Source of the DNA: Candidatus Woesearchaeota archaeon
GTDB lineage: Archaea; Nanobdellota; Nanobdellia; Woesearchaeales; UBA10216
Direction: 5' to 3'
Length of the DNA: 15,148 bases
Assembly: GCA_016180085.1 (NCBI GenBank)
Contig: JACPBX010000033.1
Location: forward strand, 1 to 15,148
Position numbers and translations under genes: made by a program. The notes below the pieces were generated by a model that saw only the letters and a list, made by a program, of their open reading frames with translations, was not told the DNA's origin and did no database searches. Positions 2,493 to 10,683 of the stretch are shown here, one piece after another; position 1 is the stretch's first letter, and the number at the start of each line of letters is the position of its first letter.

Positions 2493-2605
2493 ATTTTATA
2501 AATACAGAGACAAGAATATAAACTTATCTCTTTGCCAAACTGAAAACCAAAAACAATATATTTAGGCACTAAACAGCTATATTGGTTATTGGTTGGGGTG
2601 TTTCT

Positions 2606-3430
2606 GTGGCTGATGAGGCAACGATTGCAAAATTAAAAGAAAAGGCAAGGCAGCTGCGAATTGGATCGATTAAGCTCGTTTACCAGGCTAGCTCAGGCCA
2701 TCCCGGAGGCTCGCTTTCGGCAGCAGACATAATGGCCGCGCTGTTCTACCACGCCATGCGTTATGACCCAAAAAGGCCCGACTGGCCTGACAGGGACAGG
2801 TTTATACTGAGCAAGGGGCACTGCACGCCATTGCTGTACTCTGTATTTGCTGATGTCGGATACTTCCCTAAAGAAGAGCTTGCGACATACAGAAGATTGG
2901 GAAGGCTTACAGGGCACCCAAACCCCAAGCTGCCTGGGGTTGAAATAGCAACTGGCTCGCTCGGGCAGGGGCTTTCTGTAGGGCACGGGATGGCGCTTGC
3001 AGGGAAGCTGGATAAGAAGGATTACTACGTTTACGTGCTGCTTGGGGATGGAGAATGCAATGAAGGCCAGGTATGGGAGGCAGCAATGTCTGCGGCACAC
3101 TACAAAAGCGACCACCTGATTGCCATTGTTGACAACAACAAGGTAGCGCAGGATAATTTGACTGCAAACCTGAAAGGCATTGAACCTGTTGACAAAAAGT
3201 TCGAGGCATTCGGCTGGCACGCGATAAGGATAGACGGGCATAACATGGCAGCCGTTATAGACGCTTTAGCAGCTGCGAAAAACGTAAGGGGAAAACCGGT
3301 TGTGATTGTTGCTGACACTGTAAAAGGAAAAGGGGTTTCGTTCATGGAAAACCAGTTCGCATGGCACGGCAAGGCGCCCAGCGAGGAAATGTTCAATAAA
3401 GCAATTGCTGAGCTGGAGGCTCAAAAATGA
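2606..3430 (+). CDS. Transketolase, N-terminal (TPP-binding) subunit
   Basis: Motifs GHPGGSLS, LSKGH, GHP, TGSLGQG, the TPP motif GDGE...DNN, and WHG. GTG at 2606 is preferred over TTG at 2582 because GGGGTG (2595-2600) is an SD-like sequence upstream of it. Confidence 0.96.
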   Translation: MADEATIAKLKEKARQLRIGSIKLVYQASSGHPGGSLSAADIMAALFYHAMRYDPKRPDWPDRDRFILSKGHCTPLLYSVFADVGYFPKEELATYRRLGRLTGHPNPKLPGVEIATGSLGQGLSVGHGMALAGKLDKKDYYVYVLLGDGECNEGQVWEAAMSAAHYKSDHLIAIVDNNKVAQDNLTANLKGIEPVDKKFEAFGWHAIRIDGHNMAAVIDALAAAKNVRGKPVVIVADTVKGKGVSFMENQFAWHGKAPSEEMFNKAIAELEAQK

Positions 3431-4389
3431 GCACTACAATCACCGCAACAGCCAAAGAGGCGGCAACCAGGGACGGTTACGGAAACGCGCTCATTAAACT
3501 GGGCAGCAGCGACCCAAACGTTGTTGTGCTTGATGCTGGGGTTTCTGATTCAACAAGGACCAACAAGTTTGCAGAGAAGTTTCCTGAAAGGTTCTTCAAC
3601 ATGGGAATAAGCGAAGGCGACATGGTCTGCACGGCTGCAGGGCTGGCGAAGTGCGGCAAGACTGCTTTTGCAACCAGCTTCATATGCTTCCTTCTTGGAA
3701 GGTCAATGGACCAGATACTCGTTTCAGTAGCTTATTCTGACAGCAACGTAAAAATAGTGGGCACACACGCTGGAGTTGCCATTGGCGAGGACGGGCCGAC
3801 TGCACAGGCAATAGGGGACGTCAGCTACATGAGGGCTGTGCCAAACTTCATCGTTATTTGCCCTGCTGATGCTGTTGAAGCAGAAAAGGCAATCATGGAG
3901 ATTGCCAAACGAAAAGGGCCTGCTTATGTCAGGCTGGGAAGGGGCAATGTCAGGACAATTTACGACGACAGCTACAAGTTTGAGATTGGTAAGGCTTCTG
4001 TGGTCGCTGAGGGAAATGATGCGGCAATAATTGCTTCAGGAATAATGGTGCAGGAATCGCTCGCTGCTGCGGAGGTTTTGAAAAAAGAAGGGATAAATGT
4101 GAAAGTTTTTAATATGTCAACAATAAAGCCGATTGATAGGCAGGCAATAATAGCTGCTGCAGAAACAGGCACAGTAGTAACTGCTGAAGACCACAACATC
4201 TATGGTGGCTTGGGAAGCGCTGTTGCTGAAGTATTGGCTGAAGAAAAGCTTGACGTTAAGTTTGAAAGGATTGGCGTTAAAGACCGGTTTGCCGAGTCTG
4301 ACAGCCAGAAGGTCCTGTTCAGGAAGTACGGGCTGGATGCTGAGGCGATAGCGGCAACGGTGAAGAAGGCAGTGACTGAGAAGAAATGA
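3427..4389 (+). CDS. Transketolase, C-terminal (pyrimidine-binding and C-terminal domain) subunit
   Basis: ATGA overlap with the N-subunit gene. Motifs ATRDGYG, GISE, THAG, GEDGPT, YVRLGR and EDHNIYGGLGSAVAE. The usual HQ motif reads AQ (see findings). Confidence 0.95.
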   Translation: MSTTITATAKEAATRDGYGNALIKLGSSDPNVVVLDAGVSDSTRTNKFAEKFPERFFNMGISEGDMVCTAAGLAKCGKTAFATSFICFLLGRSMDQILVSVAYSDSNVKIVGTHAGVAIGEDGPTAQAIGDVSYMRAVPNFIVICPADAVEAEKAIMEIAKRKGPAYVRLGRGNVRTIYDDSYKFEIGKASVVAEGNDAAIIASGIMVQESLAAAEVLKKEGINVKVFNMSTIKPIDRQAIIAAAETGTVVTAEDHNIYGGLGSAVAEVLAEEKLDVKFERIGVKDRFAESDSQKVLFRKYGLDAEAIAATVKKAVTEKK

Positions 4390-4539: not shown

Positions 4540-4767
4540 GTGATTATCGGTGGCAATCGACTGCCGGATAGTTGCGCACGAGTACTTAAAGTTCTCACCG
4601 GTTGCGGGAAAGGAGTTTCACAGCAGCGGCTAATAGCCGAAACAGGGCTTTCTGAGAGGGCTGTGAAGTATGCGATAAAGGGGCTTGTGCAGGAAAAGTT
4701 GGCTTTCTACAAGATAGTTCTTGATGATACAAGGAGAAGACTATACTATGCAGAGGTAGGGAAATGA
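4540..4767 (+). CDS. Small winged-helix (MarR-like) DNA-binding protein
   Basis: GTG start, 75 aa. LPDSCARVLKVL...SQQRLIAETGLSERAVKYAIKGL...DTRRRLY resembles the archaeal LPPSAKLV...TVRYAL...DARQ.LY wHTH family. Confidence 0.8.
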   Translation: MIIGGNRLPDSCARVLKVLTGCGKGVSQQRLIAETGLSERAVKYAIKGLVQEKLAFYKIVLDDTRRRLYYAEVGK

Positions 4768-5147
4768 GAGACTACAGATTCAAAGACGGACAAAGGCTTG
4801 AACACATTGTGCACAGAACCTTGCCGCATGCAAAAAGGTTGGCTAATATCCTTACCGGAATAGATAACTTTGTGAGCATCTACAAAGCTGCACTAACAGT
4901 CGCACATAACCCGAGAGCTATTCCAAATGCGTTGTACACTACAGCGTTTGGTCTGATGAGTACTACGGCTTCACTTACAGCTGATACTGCAATTGCAGGA
5001 ACGATTTACAAAATAGCTTATCTCGATCCAACAAACTTGGAAAGAGCGGCTGATATATTCATTGGGCTTTTTGGTTTTTTGCCTGTTAGCATATTTATGT
5101 ACGTTTTAGGTCGTAGGTTGAATGAGTATATACAAGATACAAGATGA
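4764..5147 (+). CDS. Hypothetical protein with a C-terminal TM segment, 127 aa
   Basis: ATGA overlap with the wHTH gene (translational coupling). Hydrophobic stretch IFIGLFGFLPVSIFMYVLG followed by RR. Confidence 0.7.
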   Translation: MRDYRFKDGQRLEHIVHRTLPHAKRLANILTGIDNFVSIYKAALTVAHNPRAIPNALYTTAFGLMSTTASLTADTAIAGTIYKIAYLDPTNLERAADIFIGLFGFLPVSIFMYVLGRRLNEYIQDTR

Positions 5148-5183: not shown

Positions 5184-5744
5184 ATGTCAACAGAGATAAA
5201 TGTGCGACTTTTTGAAGCGTTGCAAAAACAGTTTTTCAAGCCTGCAACGTTAGTTGTAGGTTTCACTCTCCTTTTTAGCTTAATATTTTTCAGACCATTA
5301 ATCGCGTCACTATTCCTGATAGCACTAGGGGCTGTTTCTATCATTTACAAGCGCTGGGTAAGTATAGGAATAGATCTTGAACTTTGCAGCCTGTGTGCTG
5401 TTGCCGTAGGCTTAACTTACGGCTCTACTGCAGGGGCACTTTCGGGCGGCATTTCAATGCTCCTAGCCTTAAGCCTAAACGGACACGCGCTAGAAAACCC
5501 GTTTTTTGCAGCTATAAAAATCGGGACTGTTGCAGGTCTGGGCATCCTTGCAAGCATATTTGCCGCAAGTAATTTGGTGCTAATAGCAGGCATTTACACT
5601 TTTGTTGCTGACGCTATTTTTGTAGCAATAGCTTTGCAAACAGGCGGAAATGCCGGCAAATTATTTGTTTTCCTTATTACCCACACTCCAATTTTACTGT
5701 ACCAACTGAAACTGCTTTTACCATTGGCAAAAGCAGTATTGTGA
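5184..5744 (+). CDS. Integral membrane protein resembling an ECF transporter S-component
   Basis: 186 aa with about 6 TM helices. 'LELCSLCAVAVGLTYGSTAGALSG' resembles the S-component 'G..yGp..Ga.vG' pattern. The ORF is confident; the family is tentative. Confidence 0.65.
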   Translation: MSTEINVRLFEALQKQFFKPATLVVGFTLLFSLIFFRPLIASLFLIALGAVSIIYKRWVSIGIDLELCSLCAVAVGLTYGSTAGALSGGISMLLALSLNGHALENPFFAAIKIGTVAGLGILASIFAASNLVLIAGIYTFVADAIFVAIALQTGGNAGKLFVFLITHTPILLYQLKLLLPLAKAVL

Positions 5745-5755
5745 CGGGGGGTAAA

Positions 5756-6688
5756 ATGAAAAATGAAATGACATCTGCTGATTTGGAATCAAGAATAAAA
5801 GAAGCTCATACAACCATATCTAAAACTTTTGGAAAAAATGGCAACGGTGCAGAAAGTGGACGCGTAGTCACCACAGCAACAACACTCGTTGGAGCTGTTT
5901 TACGCCAAATGCCAGAACTTGACCTTGTGAGTGCACCAGACCACATTGCCCTTGCAGAGAATATTGCGCAGAGCTTTGCATCGGGAGGTAAACTAAAAAT
6001 ATTTGCCCCTTCTTGCCCTGACTACAAGCACGACGGCAGCACATACACTTTTGGCGAACTTGGTAACGGCGTAAGCCTCCTTGGGCTCTACCAGATAGAA
6101 TTTGCAGAGAAGCTCCTGCAACTTCTTGACGTTCATGGCGTCCCGTATGATTACATAGTCTTGACGGCCGACATTGAAGTGGAAGATGACGCAATGCTGG
6201 CAAAAAACAGAGTAACAAAAATGGAAGCAATTGAAAAAGTTAAAGGAACAATAAAAGAAACAGGCGAATACGCTAGTGGATTACTAATGCCTCAAAATGG
6301 AAGCACAGTACGCTCAGTTGGATTCTTACAGGAATTCAATGGATTTCCAGAATCGCAAAGGAGATATGAAGTTTTAATCGGGCAACTGCAAACCTCCTCT
6401 GCCGCGTTCAGGAAGGGCTTAGAACACCTTCATGAGGGAAGGCTTGGATTATATTCGAGGCTTTTTCCTGGTGCCAATCAAGCTGAATTGCACAATCTGA
6501 TGCCCCGCACCATAAGAACAATGGCACAGTATGCTACTTTAGGGCAATTGGCGAGAGAGCAAAACGCGGTTATAACTTCTCACAGGACATTAAACATTCC
6601 AGCCTATAATAACCCCAAACTGTTTTTAGGAAGACCAGAGGACTATAGAAGAGTGCCGGTTTTCAACTTTGACAGGGGGATATACTAA
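5756..6688 (+). CDS. Uncharacterised enzyme, about 310 aa; candidate cyclodipeptide-synthase-like / class Ic aaRS-derived (HUP) fold
   Basis: ATG 5756 follows an SD-like G-run (5746-5752); the track starts it at GTG 5741. Motif-like segments: FAPSCPDY, IVLTADIE, EAIEKVKGTIKE, RTMAQY, AVITSH. The ORF is confident; the function is inferred. Confidence 0.75.
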   Translation: MKNEMTSADLESRIKEAHTTISKTFGKNGNGAESGRVVTTATTLVGAVLRQMPELDLVSAPDHIALAENIAQSFASGGKLKIFAPSCPDYKHDGSTYTFGELGNGVSLLGLYQIEFAEKLLQLLDVHGVPYDYIVLTADIEVEDDAMLAKNRVTKMEAIEKVKGTIKETGEYASGLLMPQNGSTVRSVGFLQEFNGFPESQRRYEVLIGQLQTSSAAFRKGLEHLHEGRLGLYSRLFPGANQAELHNLMPRTIRTMAQYATLGQLAREQNAVITSHRTLNIPAYNNPKLFLGRPEDYRRVPVFNFDRGIY

Positions 6689-6689
6689 A

Positions 6690-7313
6690 ATGCCGCCCAT
6701 TTTTATGAAAGTAGCTCCATACGGCTACGGCAATGGAAAAAAGAAGGCTGAACTACGATATTACGCCAGTTTAGCGGCACAGCACATATCTCCACCGCTG
6801 CTGCCTGATTCGGAAGAGTACATCTTGAAACACGTCAAAAGGTACGACTTAAAGAATGTAAGACTTATCCTAAGCTCACCACAGAAGCGCGCATTACAAA
6901 CTGCAGGGATGATTAGGCGGCTGTTTCTTAACAACGCCCATGTGAAAGTTGATGCAAATCTCAATGAAGTGCCATTTTCGCTTTATGGGCTAGATTCAAG
7001 GAAGTACTCCAGTACAATTGCTAGAAATAAGTTTTTTGATGATTTTGTCAATAACAGGCTTCTGGAGTCGCGTGACTACCTCAAAAGCCGCGTAGAAAGA
7101 ATTTTAAGAAAAGCCAAAGACACAGACACTCTATTTGTAACTCACACGTTCCTGATGAAAATTTTAGAAAAGCTCATTGAATGCCCCGACCTGTTCAAAC
7201 ATCCTCAAAAATTCATTAGGAACGTCAACTTAAACAAGAGGTTGTTTGAATACTGTGAAATTTTAAAACTTACAAACAGGGAAATAAAGCAAACTTTAAA
7301 TAAACTAGGGTAG
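6690..7313 (+). CDS. Histidine phosphatase superfamily homolog lacking the RHG motif
   Basis: ATG 6690 lies 1 nt after the upstream stop, with GGGGG upstream. It retains LSSPQKRALQTA, LNEVPF and LFVTH, but the first strand reads IFMKVAPY instead of xxRHG. Confidence 0.8.
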   Translation: MPPIFMKVAPYGYGNGKKKAELRYYASLAAQHISPPLLPDSEEYILKHVKRYDLKNVRLILSSPQKRALQTAGMIRRLFLNNAHVKVDANLNEVPFSLYGLDSRKYSSTIARNKFFDDFVNNRLLESRDYLKSRVERILRKAKDTDTLFVTHTFLMKILEKLIECPDLFKHPQKFIRNVNLNKRLFEYCEILKLTNREIKQTLNKLG

Positions 7314-7325
7314 AGGATTTAAACC

Positions 7326-8447
7326 ATGCCAAAAGAATTCACGGTAACACCGTGGAAGGTAGAGGGAGAGGTCGATTATACCAAGCTCATAAAGGAGTTC
7401 GGGACAGAGGCTGTTGATGATAAGCTGCTGCAGCGGATAAAGAAGCACACCGGCGAGCTTCACCACATGCTGCGCAGGAAGATATTCTTCTCCCACCGCG
7501 ATATGAACTGGCTTCTGGACGAGTACGAGAAAGGCAACAAGTTCTACCTTTACACAGGCAGGGGGCCATCCGGGCACACTCATTTGGGGCATCTTGTGCC
7601 ATGGATGTTCACCAAGTGGCTGCAAGACAAGTTTGATGTCGAGCTGTGGTTCCAGCTGACCGACGACGAGAAATTCATGTTCAACGACAAGCTCGAGCTT
7701 GAGGAAACAAACAGGCTGGCTTATGAAAACGCGCTTGACGTGATAGCGCTTGGTTTCAAGAAAGGGAAAACAAAAATTTTCGCAGATACTGATTATGCAA
7801 AGACGCTGTACAGGCAGGCCATACGGGTTGCCAAGAAGCTGACCGTGTCTACTACAAAGGCCGTGTTTGGCCTGACAGATAGCAACAGCGTAGGGGAGCA
7901 TTTTTTCACATCGGTGCAAAGCGTACCGGCTTTCTTGCCATCAGTTTTGGCAGGCAAAAACATTCCGTGCTTGATTCCTCATGCAATTGACCAGGACCCG
8001 CACTTCCGTGTAACTCGCGATATTGTTCATAAGCTAGGCTACTACAAGCCTGCAGCAATACATTGCATTTTCCTGCCTGCTTTAACTGGGCCAAAAGGGA
8101 AAATGTCTGCTTCAATTGCAGAAACTGCAGTTTATACTACCGATGCCCCCGAAGTTGTTGAAAAAAAGATAAGGAAATACGCATTTTCTGGCGGGAGGGA
8201 TACCGTTGAGGAGCATCGCAAGAAAGGCGGGAATCCTGATATTGACGTTTCTTATCAGTGGCTAAGGTTCTTTGAGGAAGACGACAGAAAACTTGAAAAA
8301 ATTTACCATGACTACAAGAGCGGGAAGCTGTTAAGTGGTGAATTGAAAGAGATTTTGATTGAAAAGCTGGGGAAATTCTTGATGAAGCACCAGGAAAACA
8401 GGGAAAAAGCGAGAAAAGCGCTTGATTCCTACATTCTAAAGGACTGA
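7326..8447 (+). CDS. trpS: Tryptophan--tRNA ligase (archaeal/eukaryotic type)
   Basis: YTGRGPS, HIGH-equivalent HLGH, QLTDDEK, AIDQDPHFR, KMSAS, and FSGG...GGNPDIDV. Confidence 0.98.
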   Translation: MPKEFTVTPWKVEGEVDYTKLIKEFGTEAVDDKLLQRIKKHTGELHHMLRRKIFFSHRDMNWLLDEYEKGNKFYLYTGRGPSGHTHLGHLVPWMFTKWLQDKFDVELWFQLTDDEKFMFNDKLELEETNRLAYENALDVIALGFKKGKTKIFADTDYAKTLYRQAIRVAKKLTVSTTKAVFGLTDSNSVGEHFFTSVQSVPAFLPSVLAGKNIPCLIPHAIDQDPHFRVTRDIVHKLGYYKPAAIHCIFLPALTGPKGKMSASIAETAVYTTDAPEVVEKKIRKYAFSGGRDTVEEHRKKGGNPDIDVSYQWLRFFEEDDRKLEKIYHDYKSGKLLSGELKEILIEKLGKFLMKHQENREKARKALDSYILKD

Positions 8448-8496
8448 TTCGGCAGGTTTTTATACAACCATAAGATTTCTCCGGGTTTGATTTGGC

Positions 8497-10683
8497 ATGG
8501 CCGAATTAATCATAACTGAAAAACCGAAAGCTGCACAGAGGATAGCGGAAGCCCTGGCCGACGGCAAGGCAATAAAAAAAGGCGAGAGGGGAGTTTACTA
8601 TTACGAAATTACCCACGGGAAAAAAGACATAATTGTTGGCTGTGCAGTGGGCCATCTTTTCGGGCTTGCCGAAAAGGAGAAGAAAAGGGGCATGAGCTAT
8701 CCTGTTTTTGATGTTGAATGGAAGCCAACTTACGAAACAACGAAAACTGCGGCTTTCTCAAAAAAGTATTACGACACTCTCAAGAAGCTATCCAAAGGCG
8801 TTACTGATTTTGTTGTCGCTTGTGATTTTGATGTTGAAGGGGAAGTCATTGGGCACAACATCCTGCGCTACATCTGCAAGCAGAAGGATGCCAAGAGGAT
8901 GAAGTTTTCTACACTCACAAAAGAGGATTTGGTTGAAGCTTATGAGAAAGTTTCCCCCCATATTGAGTGGGGCATGGCGCATGCCGGGGAAACGAGGCAC
9001 GAACTTGACTGGTATTATGGCATAAACCTTTCCAGGGCATTAACCGGCTCAATCAAAAAGGCAGGCATTTTCAAGATACTGAGCATCGGGAGGGTGCAGG
9101 GGCCTGCGCTGCAGATTATTGTGCAGCGCGAAAAGGAAATAAAGGCATTCAAGCCTCAGCCGTTCTGGCAGCTGCAGCTACAAGGTAAGGTAAGAAATGG
9201 CGAGCTGACTGCCCTCCATGAGAAAGACAAGTTCTGGGGCAAGAAAGAAGCTGATACGGTTTATGCGAAGACGAAAGGGAAGAGCGGGACAATCGCCGAA
9301 GTCAAGCGGGATGAGTTCCAGCAGCAACCGCCATTTCCTTTTGATTTAACCACACTGCAGACAGAGGCATACAGGTGCTTTGGCGCTCCCCCAAAAGCGA
9401 CGCTTGAGATAGCTCAGGAGCTGTATACAGCTGGGCTCATTTCCTATCCCAGAACCTCATCCCAGCAGCTGCCGCCAACGATAGGATATTCAAAGATTTT
9501 GACGGCAATATCACGGCAACAGGACTATGAAGCACTATGCAAAAGGCTGTTACAGAAATCAGGCCTAAGGCCAAACAACGGCAAAAAGACAGACCCTGCG
9601 CACCCGGCAATATACCCAACGGGGCTGAAGCCAAAAGGGCTTGACAAAAGAAGCCAAAAGATTTACGATTTGGTTGCAAGGAGATTTCTGGCCACTTTCG
9701 CTGAAGCTGCAACAAGAGAAACAATGACAGTAAGGATTGATGTTAACGGAGAGATTTTTGTTGCAGCCGGAACGCGAACAAAAGTGAAGGGATGGCACGA
9801 GTTCTACGGGCCTTATGCGAAGTTCAAGGATGAAGAGCTGCCGCAGGTAACGAAAGGCGAAGAGGTCGCTGTGAAAAAGCTGGAACTTCTGGCAAAAGAA
9901 ACAAAGCCTCCAGCAAGATACACGGAGGCTTCGATAATAAGGGAGCTTGAAAAGAGGAACCTTGGCACAAAGGCAACAAGGGCTGAGGTTGTTGATACAT
10001 TATTCAAGAGGGGATACGTTAGTGGCAGGGCAATTGAGGCCACTGATTTAGGGATAAAAATTGTTGAAACATTGGGGAAATACAGCCCCGGAATAATAGA
10101 CGAAGAGCTGACAAGGCACTTCGAGCTTGAAATGGAAGAGATACAGGAGGATAAGAAAAAAAGTGTGGAAGTCCTTGAGGAGGCAAAGACTGTGCTCGTG
10201 AAGATACTTGAAGGCTTCAAGAAAAAGGAAAAAGGCATAGGCGAGGAGCTTATCGAGGCAACAAAGGAGTCTGAAACAAAGGAAAACACAATAGGAAAAT
10301 GCCCTGCCTGCAACTCAGGTACGTTAATGATGAAACGGGGCAAGTTTGGAAGGTTCATAGCATGCAACACATATCCGGAATGCAAGGCAACGTTCAAGCT
10401 TCCATCAAACGGATTTATCAAAAACACAGACAGGCTGTGCGAAACGTGCAAGCACCCCGTGATAACAGTTATCAGAAGCGCCAAAAAGCCCCAGGACGTC
10501 TGCATAAACCCGGAGTGCCCAAGCAAGGTCTCGCCTGACGCGAGGAAGCTGATAAAGGAGAACGAAAACAGCACCTGCAAAAAGTGCGGTGAGGGAAAAA
10601 TGGTCCTCAGAAGAAGCATATACGGGAGCTTCCTTGGCTGCGACAGGTTCCCGAAATGCAAGAACATAGTAAAGGTTCAGTGA
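8497..10683 (+). CDS. topA: DNA topoisomerase I (type IA) with three C-terminal zinc-ribbon repeats
   Basis: Toprim motifs ITEKP and ACDFDVEGE, GRVQ, catalytic ISYPRT, HPAIYPT and GTKATRA. Three C4 ribbons: CPAC..C..YPEC, CETC..CINPEC and CKKC..C.RFPKC. Confidence 0.97.
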   Translation: MAELIITEKPKAAQRIAEALADGKAIKKGERGVYYYEITHGKKDIIVGCAVGHLFGLAEKEKKRGMSYPVFDVEWKPTYETTKTAAFSKKYYDTLKKLSKGVTDFVVACDFDVEGEVIGHNILRYICKQKDAKRMKFSTLTKEDLVEAYEKVSPHIEWGMAHAGETRHELDWYYGINLSRALTGSIKKAGIFKILSIGRVQGPALQIIVQREKEIKAFKPQPFWQLQLQGKVRNGELTALHEKDKFWGKKEADTVYAKTKGKSGTIAEVKRDEFQQQPPFPFDLTTLQTEAYRCFGAPPKATLEIAQELYTAGLISYPRTSSQQLPPTIGYSKILTAISRQQDYEALCKRLLQKSGLRPNNGKKTDPAHPAIYPTGLKPKGLDKRSQKIYDLVARRFLATFAEAATRETMTVRIDVNGEIFVAAGTRTKVKGWHEFYGPYAKFKDEELPQVTKGEEVAVKKLELLAKETKPPARYTEASIIRELEKRNLGTKATRAEVVDTLFKRGYVSGRAIEATDLGIKIVETLGKYSPGIIDEELTRHFELEMEEIQEDKKKSVEVLEEAKTVLVKILEGFKKKEKGIGEELIEATKESETKENTIGKCPACNSGTLMMKRGKFGRFIACNTYPECKATFKLPSNGFIKNTDRLCETCKHPVITVIRSAKKPQDVCINPECPSKVSPDARKLIKENENSTCKKCGEGKMVLRRSIYGSFLGCDRFPKCKNIVKVQ

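Follow-up and report, generated by a model that had tools for sequence, protein, structure and literature searches.

What does a 310-residue protein do that has the predicted fold of the tyrosyl- and tryptophanyl-tRNA synthetases (TyrRS and TrpRS), has neither of their signature motifs, and is encoded just upstream of a TrpRS gene? The question is raised by a 15,148-nt stretch of DNA from a Candidatus Woesearchaeota archaeon (GenBank assembly GCA_016180085.1, contig JACPBX010000033.1, forward strand; the whole stretch is called the window here), in which the gene for this protein, X (5756-6688, + strand), is followed by a second gene, Y, and by trpS. An earlier note on the sequence had described X as an orphan enzyme resembling cyclodipeptide synthases (CDPSs), perhaps a tRNA-dependent aminoacyl transferase or a related HUP-fold enzyme, with an isonitrile synthase as an alternative. 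Our analysis leads to another reading, to which we give about an even chance: X and Y would form a two-gene module of the tryptophan (Trp)/tRNA-Trp regulon in Trp-auxotrophic ultra-small archaea (Woesearchaeota) and bacteria of the Candidate Phyla Radiation (CPR)/Patescibacteria, raising the supply of Trp or of Trp-tRNA-Trp.

In the window, Y (6690-7313, + strand) starts 1 nt after the X stop codon, and trpS (7326-8447, + strand), which encodes an archaeal-type TrpRS (NCBIfam tryptophan--tRNA ligase, 523 bits), starts 12 nt after Y. The earlier note had placed TrpRS two genes from X; this is correct, and the link is far stronger across relatives than its author could have known. Loci came from exact-protein look-ups, from scans of genomes and from a single metagenome scan; hidden Markov models (HMMs) of X, Y and TrpRS were used to score them, together with ARAGORN. 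The loci hold 28 distinct X groups (≤90% identity). Y lies immediately downstream in all 25 of the loci with enough downstream DNA, commonly with an X-Y start/stop overlap, and TrpRS comes immediately after Y in 19 of the 25. A tRNA-Trp(CCA) gene follows Y in two loci (L006 and L055/L059), with TrpRS a few genes upstream. The TrpRS partners were confirmed as trpS and belong to three lineages, namely archaeal A, which includes that of the window, archaeal B, 36-38% identical to A, and bacterial; X proteins from groups of loci with different TrpRS lineages are 23-30% identical to one another. By our estimate, such a repeated X-Y-trpS pattern in genomes of ~1,000 genes is beyond chance, and we infer from the gene arrangement that X and Y are co-expressed with trpS. 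In two operons, trpS is followed by tRNA_bind genes. One CPR operon (L008, 1859-3271) has a 470-aa TrpRS after X-Y with an N-terminal YbaK/ProX-type tRNA_edit domain, an unusual feature for a TrpRS, and a Trbp111-like tRNA_bind gene after it.

Regulatory elements upstream of X were found in related bacterial loci. In four loci of a subgroup with X proteins of ~260 aa, a short open reading frame (ORF) with tandem Trp codons lies 100-150 nt before X, with a hairpin and a T-run behind it. The leader peptides end in KSWWTQP (L069), VVWWWTLPL (L068), IVWWTLPL (L067) and FSWWQTISP (L009); we estimate that WW would occur by chance ~0.1 times per random 400-nt region across three frames. The intrinsic terminator of L069 has a predicted energy of -22.5 kcal/mol, and the Rfam Trp_leader match at this locus (27.6 bits, E 0.0014) is below the gathering threshold. 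A T-box match is present directly before X in L016 (42 bits against a gathering score of 93, E 3.6e-8), with a GGUGGCACCGC box and an ultrashort stem I with the loop GAAUGGGA, UGG being the candidate specifier. L068 additionally has a gene of the Trp_repressor family (E 1e-18) next to X, in divergent orientation. No T-box was detected in 23 loci at Rfam gathering thresholds, and relaxed T-box searches detected none in L015, L009 and L068. Where a sensor is visible, its type suggests that X-Y is turned on by a shortage of charged tRNA-Trp; such induction argues for a role in Trp supply or charging, and against Trp-tRNA being spent on a metabolite.

The carriers of X-Y are Woesearchaeota archaea and CPR/Patescibacteria bacteria, with 20-30% identity across both domains. 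The module is rare: of 401 genomes sampled from the window's phylum, one carries it (a same-genus genome in the sample does not), and it was found in 13 of 401 Patescibacteria. The window genome (1.0 Mb, 83% complete) has a single TrpRS and one TyrRS-like match. No trpB was detected in any of the seven carrier genomes tested (the window's and six others, 1.0-1.5 Mb), and the control genomes all scored.

X itself lies in an open frame from 5741 to 6688. Translation likely starts at the ATG at 5756. A ribosome-binding site, GGGGGT, stands 8-13 nt ahead of it, and homologues start at the equivalent MK in the alignment, in line with this assignment. Residues are counted from this ATG (the numbering in the earlier note is higher by 5). 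The motif strings quoted in that note are all found in the X sequence (IFAPSCPDY, 82-90; DYIVLTADIE, 132-141; EAIEKVKGTIKE, 157-168; VRSVGF, 185-190; AQY, 257-259; AVITSH, 271-276), and HIGH and KMSKS are absent, as had been stated. X is not an orphan. A word-indexed search gave 14 close homologues (43-82% identity, one labelled Woesearchaeota), and a profile search of 1.84 billion cluster representatives gave 289 X-family proteins at E ≤ 1e-3 and 116 at E ≤ 1e-10. The family is without a name: Pfam (E ≤ 0.01) and NCBIfam scans of X gave no match, neither database holding a model for it, no meaningful Pfam match was seen in any of 47 family members scanned one by one, and full-text searching turned up no literature on the family. 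The isoelectric point (pI) of X is near neutral. Its neighbours in the ESM Atlas are unnamed clusters (template-modelling score, TM, 0.70-0.73), and in two neighbouring clusters PF05141 is present on 11-21% of members. Phage genomes gave no tblastn match to X or to a 261-aa relative, even though Uroviricota is the label of one Atlas cluster. Fused forms of 623-2000 aa were not found, a negative that is weak evidence, and the Y and TrpRS HMMs identified zero fusions among 162 X-family proteins. Several Patescibacteria (L040-L048, e.g. L040 883-2253) encode proteins of 453-484 aa with the X-like domain at the C terminus, ~200 N-terminal residues without a Pfam match, and neither Y nor TrpRS nearby; these look like a paralogous subfamily with a different role.

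AlphaFold2, run with the family alignment, gave a model of X with a predicted local distance difference test (pLDDT) of 87.5 and a predicted TM score (pTM) of 0.88. The top Foldseek matches were the CDPS 5ocd, the TrpRS homologue 3hzr, the PIsnA/PvcA structures 9dhm and 3e59, and many TyrRSs, and re-examination of Foldseek's own matches raised TyrRS to 13.1. Residues 34-310 cover TyrRS from its N terminus through the strand just ahead of KMSKS. In the model, the chain stops where the KMSKS loop would start and the anticodon-binding domain is absent; S107-L-L-G110, at the N terminus of the helix after strand 1, probably occupies the position of HIGH. As modelled, X is a catalytic-domain-only derivative of the class-Ic aminoacyl-tRNA synthetases (aaRSs; TyrRS/TrpRS), approximately equidistant from aaRSs, CDPSs and PvcA. 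Since X is without HIGH, KMSKS and an anticodon-binding domain, canonical ATP-dependent amino-acid activation and aminoacylation are excluded. The HUP, or class-Ic aaRS-like, fold proposed in the earlier note was thus borne out, with CDPS, PvcA/PIsnA and TyrRS/TrpRS as the top structural neighbours, and the searches gave neither a non-HUP fold nor a confident match to a characterised family.

The similarity to AlbC that had been drawn by eye is statistically undetectable. BLASTP of X against a CPR CDPS gave E 3.2, and against a CPR PvcA-family protein and the neighbouring TrpRS nothing significant. With the 47-sequence X-family profile, hhalign probabilities were 2.7% for CDPS, 0.7% for PvcA-like proteins and 4% for TrpRS, the templates being shallow alignments that make these negatives weak. 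An HMM search of the X family against CDPS, PvcA-like and TrpRS proteins gave no match, and the Pfam scans found neither PF00579 (the TyrRS/TrpRS catalytic domain) in X nor PF05141 in X or its 47 relatives. Because BLASTP, Pfam and hhalign give no match, we file X under neither CDPS nor DIT1_PvcA. Searches of PDB sequences with X and family profiles gave chance matches only.

Conservation was counted over 148 distant X representatives, with denominators that vary by column. The family shares a polar site made up of the C87-P88-D89-Y90 loop after strand 1, D139 and E141 after strand 2, R229 and Y259. C87 is conserved in 141/142 (99%), as is P88 (141/142); D89 and Y90 are each found in 131/142 (92%), Y97 in 127/140, D139 in 139/148 (94%), E141 in 146/148 (99%), R229 in 134/145 and Y259 in 139/142 (98%). 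Among the residues for which the earlier note had anticipated conservation, C87, D89, Y90, D139, E141 and Y259 are thus retained at 92-99%; H276 (98/142, 69%) and S86 are not. S86, the proposed catalytic Ser, is Ser in 40/148 (27%) and otherwise V, T, C or A. Since S86 is variable and the adjoining Cys87 is the invariant residue, Cys87 rather than the Ser is the candidate nucleophile; the choice between the two as counterpart of AlbC Ser37 was made by strand ends, not by superposition. The residue four positions after Y259 is an invariant Gly across X homologues, at a position that we take to be the essential Glu182 in AlbC and Gln in TyrRS. Y259 and this Gly would be the counterparts of AlbC Tyr178 and Glu182, an equivalence drawn without superposition. 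The AlbC S37C mutant still yields a covalent intermediate (PMC3105412), which makes Cys chemically plausible here.

The partner Y is a 207-aa protein of pI 9.9 with a histidine-phosphatase fold. It matches Pfam His_Phos_1 (PF00300) with 34.7 bits, against a cut-off of 21.7, from profile position 19 on. Its model (pLDDT 92.6) has a normal histidine-phosphatase fold, with phosphoserine, ribazole and sugar phosphatases as Foldseek matches. In the alignments, every Y has K/R-x-A/F-P-Y in place of RHG, the motif with the phospho-accepting His, and the second Arg, the Glu and the second His of the phosphatase site are invariant. Y is also strongly basic, with a pI of 9.1-9.9 in 8 of 9 homologues. 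L055 has, in addition to a nucleophile-less Y downstream of X, a canonical histidine phosphatase directly upstream (3010-3627; LIRHG intact, Pfam E 3e-38).

In archaeal loci only, X is preceded by a gene for a polytopic membrane protein, M (186 aa; 5184-5744, + strand, ending 11 nt before X in the window), which is better conserved than X (51-74% identity). M is one of six paralogues in the window genome (G000, 1 Mb); three are in tandem between ProRS and the peptidyl-tRNA hydrolase PTH2, and one is beside a Glu/Leu/Phe/Val dehydrogenase (paralogue sites: G000 C37 7403-9369, corresponding to L074 4245-6388; C27 2472-2891; C29 40103-40627). M has a faint signal of an energy-coupling factor (ECF) S-component (E 0.8), and a search for EcfT found none. 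M is possibly an amino-acid uptake component, which is a guess, not a finding, and the paralogues may represent a family, specific to Woesearchaeota, of small proteins for amino-acid uptake. A small winged helix-turn-helix gene (4540-4767) and a 127-aa membrane ORF (4764-5147) upstream of M were considered as further parts; they are not counted in the module because other loci have no counterparts.

According to the reading that we prefer, X and Y would be made when charged tRNA-Trp is scarce and would boost the supply of Trp or Trp-tRNA-Trp, either by salvage of a Trp-related precursor or by support of charging. The relic amino-acid pocket of X might bind Trp, a Trp-like ligand or an aminoacyl end, with Y259 and D139/E141 probably placed where TyrRS holds the alpha-amino group, and Cys87 could serve ATP-independent covalent catalysis. 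Y would offer a surface able to bind anions or phosphate, whether of a phospho-substrate or of tRNA, and in archaea M would import the substrate. A bolder version, which we regard as possible but doubtful, is that X-Y (with M in archaea) is a new route to Trp or Trp-tRNA-Trp in Trp-auxotrophic CPR bacteria and DPANN archaea. X would then be a fourth functional class-Ic lineage, beside aaRSs, CDPSs and isonitrile synthases, with a Cys nucleophile and no ATP, that salvages a Trp precursor or loads tRNA-Trp from an alternative donor. The Trp link of X-Y is repeated in several ways (three TrpRS lineages, tRNA-Trp, the T-box, the attenuators and an adjacent TrpR), a convergence that proteins of unknown function seldom show and that can be put to a direct test.

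Several points weigh against a supply module. Its substrate, its product and an X-Y complex remain hypothetical, and the placement of residues in a TyrRS-like pocket follows secondary-structure order in the model, not a residue-level superposition. The T-box and Trp_leader matches score below Rfam gathering, L015 has no detectable leader, and the archaeal window itself yielded no Trp-sensing element, the sole evidence there being the tight co-directional spacing with trpS. Co-expression with trpS would equally suit an enzyme that uses Trp-tRNA, and the rarity of the module suits an accessory trait (e.g. resistance) as well as salvage.

An enzyme using Trp-tRNA is what the earlier note had in mind, and in an adjusted form X would be a CDPS-like transferase that forms a thioester between Cys87 and the Trp of Trp-tRNA-Trp and then passes this Trp to a second substrate to give a Trp-containing product, with the basic Y holding the tRNA. 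The fold of X is as close to CDPSs as to aaRSs and the ATP motifs are absent; the end of strand 1 has an invariant Cys in the place of AlbC Ser37, and AlbC with S37C still forms the covalent intermediate (PMC3105412); X is linked to trpS and tRNA-Trp genes; and true CDPSs are present in CPR bacteria. We nevertheless consider such a transferase unlikely, given that the Pfam CDPS match is absent and hhalign gives 2.7%, that the essential Glu182 of AlbC has an invariant Gly in its place, and that tailoring genes are absent nearby. Induction at scarce charged tRNA-Trp is also the wrong logic for a consumer of Trp-tRNA, especially in 1-Mb Trp auxotrophs. Thus, the HUP-fold part of the earlier idea stands, and the part in which Trp-tRNA is consumed to make a metabolite is disfavoured by the Trp-starvation regulation. 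The same regulation argues against consumption of Trp by a PvcA/IsnA-like enzyme, which would condense free L-Trp with a sugar phosphate, e.g. to form an isonitrile. The fold of X does resemble PvcA, but PF05141 is absent from X and 47 family members, hhalign gives 0.7%, and a PvcB/IsnB-type Fe/2-oxoglutarate dioxygenase is found among the annotated neighbours of none of the loci, making this role highly improbable.

The sensors, which respond to low charged tRNA-Trp, are also compatible with resistance to a TrpRS inhibitor. The TrpRS-like pocket of X would act as a decoy, capturing or inactivating an analogue of Trp or a mimic of Trp-adenylate, Y would handle a phosphate or phosphoramidate, and the module would be induced when TrpRS is inhibited. 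The patchy, accessory-like distribution, the position of the module next to the drug target's own gene, the nucleophilic Cys in an aaRS-like pocket and the swapping of TrpRS alleles among close relatives are in line with this idea. We rate it as distinctly unlikely, however: these habitats have no known producer or inhibitor, the module is found alongside all three TrpRS lineages and so is not tied to one allele, and Y is without the catalytic His for the usual hydrolysis route. We also considered and dropped a special 'resistant' TrpRS that travels with X-Y, since in L001 X is 82% but TrpRS (9566-10660) 38% identical to that of the window, and since G074, from another genus, has a window-type TrpRS (77% identity) without X-Y. 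By analogy with the helpers Arc1p and Trbp111, X-Y might instead be a non-catalytic cofactor that binds tRNA-Trp or TrpRS and aids charging at low Trp. X and Y are both without the hallmark catalytic motifs of their families, Y is very basic, and two operons have the tRNA_bind genes after trpS; yet the near-invariant Cys, Asp, Glu, Arg and Tyr in X, retained at 20-30% identity, are typical of catalysis or small-ligand binding, and a purely non-catalytic role seems very unlikely to us.

The trpS locus has a history of its own. In a same-genus genome (L023, G371:C1), the flanking transketolase, TopA, HerA and translin are 83-88% identical to those of the window, and the TrpRS at the same position (7876-8973) is only 34-36% identical. 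Two archaeal TrpRS lineages appear to swap at this one locus, TrpRS being replaced in place. Transfer of TrpRS between archaea and CPR bacteria has been reported (PMC5370408). Relatives without M-X-Y have an Asp/Glu/hydantoin-racemase-family gene between transketolase and TrpRS, the place of M-X-Y in the window (L023 7136-7879; L022 11406-12080, - strand), which could be there by chance or as a non-homologous replacement, e.g. for D-amino-acid use.

Other features of the window include an archaeal signal recognition particle (SRP) RNA (1-242, - strand; Rfam RF01857, 116 bits), which is cut by the window end and has the same gene in the same neighbourhood in L001, and a transketolase upstream of the module (2582-4389) that is split into N- and C-terminal halves encoded by separate overlapping genes, an ordinary arrangement for archaea. 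Elsewhere in the window genome, a PilB-like ATPase gene contains an intein with a LAGLIDADG domain (L076 6094-7962), and a group I intron match was found on a CPR metagenome contig (L056 1083-1306).

Much of microbial diversity belongs to the CPR bacteria and DPANN archaea, whose amino-acid provisioning is poorly understood. In our rating, X is another repurposed class-Ic aaRS catalytic domain. The known offshoots of the TyrRS/TrpRS fold, the CDPSs and isonitrile synthases, are chemically unusual, and X would add another catalytic one. It differs from TyrRS and TrpRS (PF00579) by the lack of HIGH, the KMSKS loop and the anticodon-binding domain. CDPSs use two aminoacyl-tRNAs and form an acyl-enzyme intermediate. 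With CDPSs (AlbC, Rv2275, YvmC; PF16715), X shares a class-Ic aaRS-like Rossmann domain without HIGH and KMSKS, but it conserves Cys instead of Ser, has Gly where AlbC has Glu182, and is longer by an N-terminal helical region of 78 residues and by an insert of ~15 residues that follows strand 1. Also unlike CDPSs, it has an obligate phosphatase-like partner in Y and, in relatives, Trp-starvation-responsive regulation. Compared to PvcA/IsnA/PIsnA (PF05141), X has no Pfam or profile match and no dioxygenase partner, and is paired with Y and trpS. In its regulation, X-Y is like Bacillus rtpA (anti-TRAP), a non-biosynthetic gene of the Trp regulon that sits behind a Trp T-box (bioRxiv 10.1101/2023.06.29.547145), in that expression is tied to uncharged tRNA-Trp rather than to free Trp alone; the proteins are unrelated, and the hosts of X-Y, unlike those of rtpA, are without trp biosynthesis genes.
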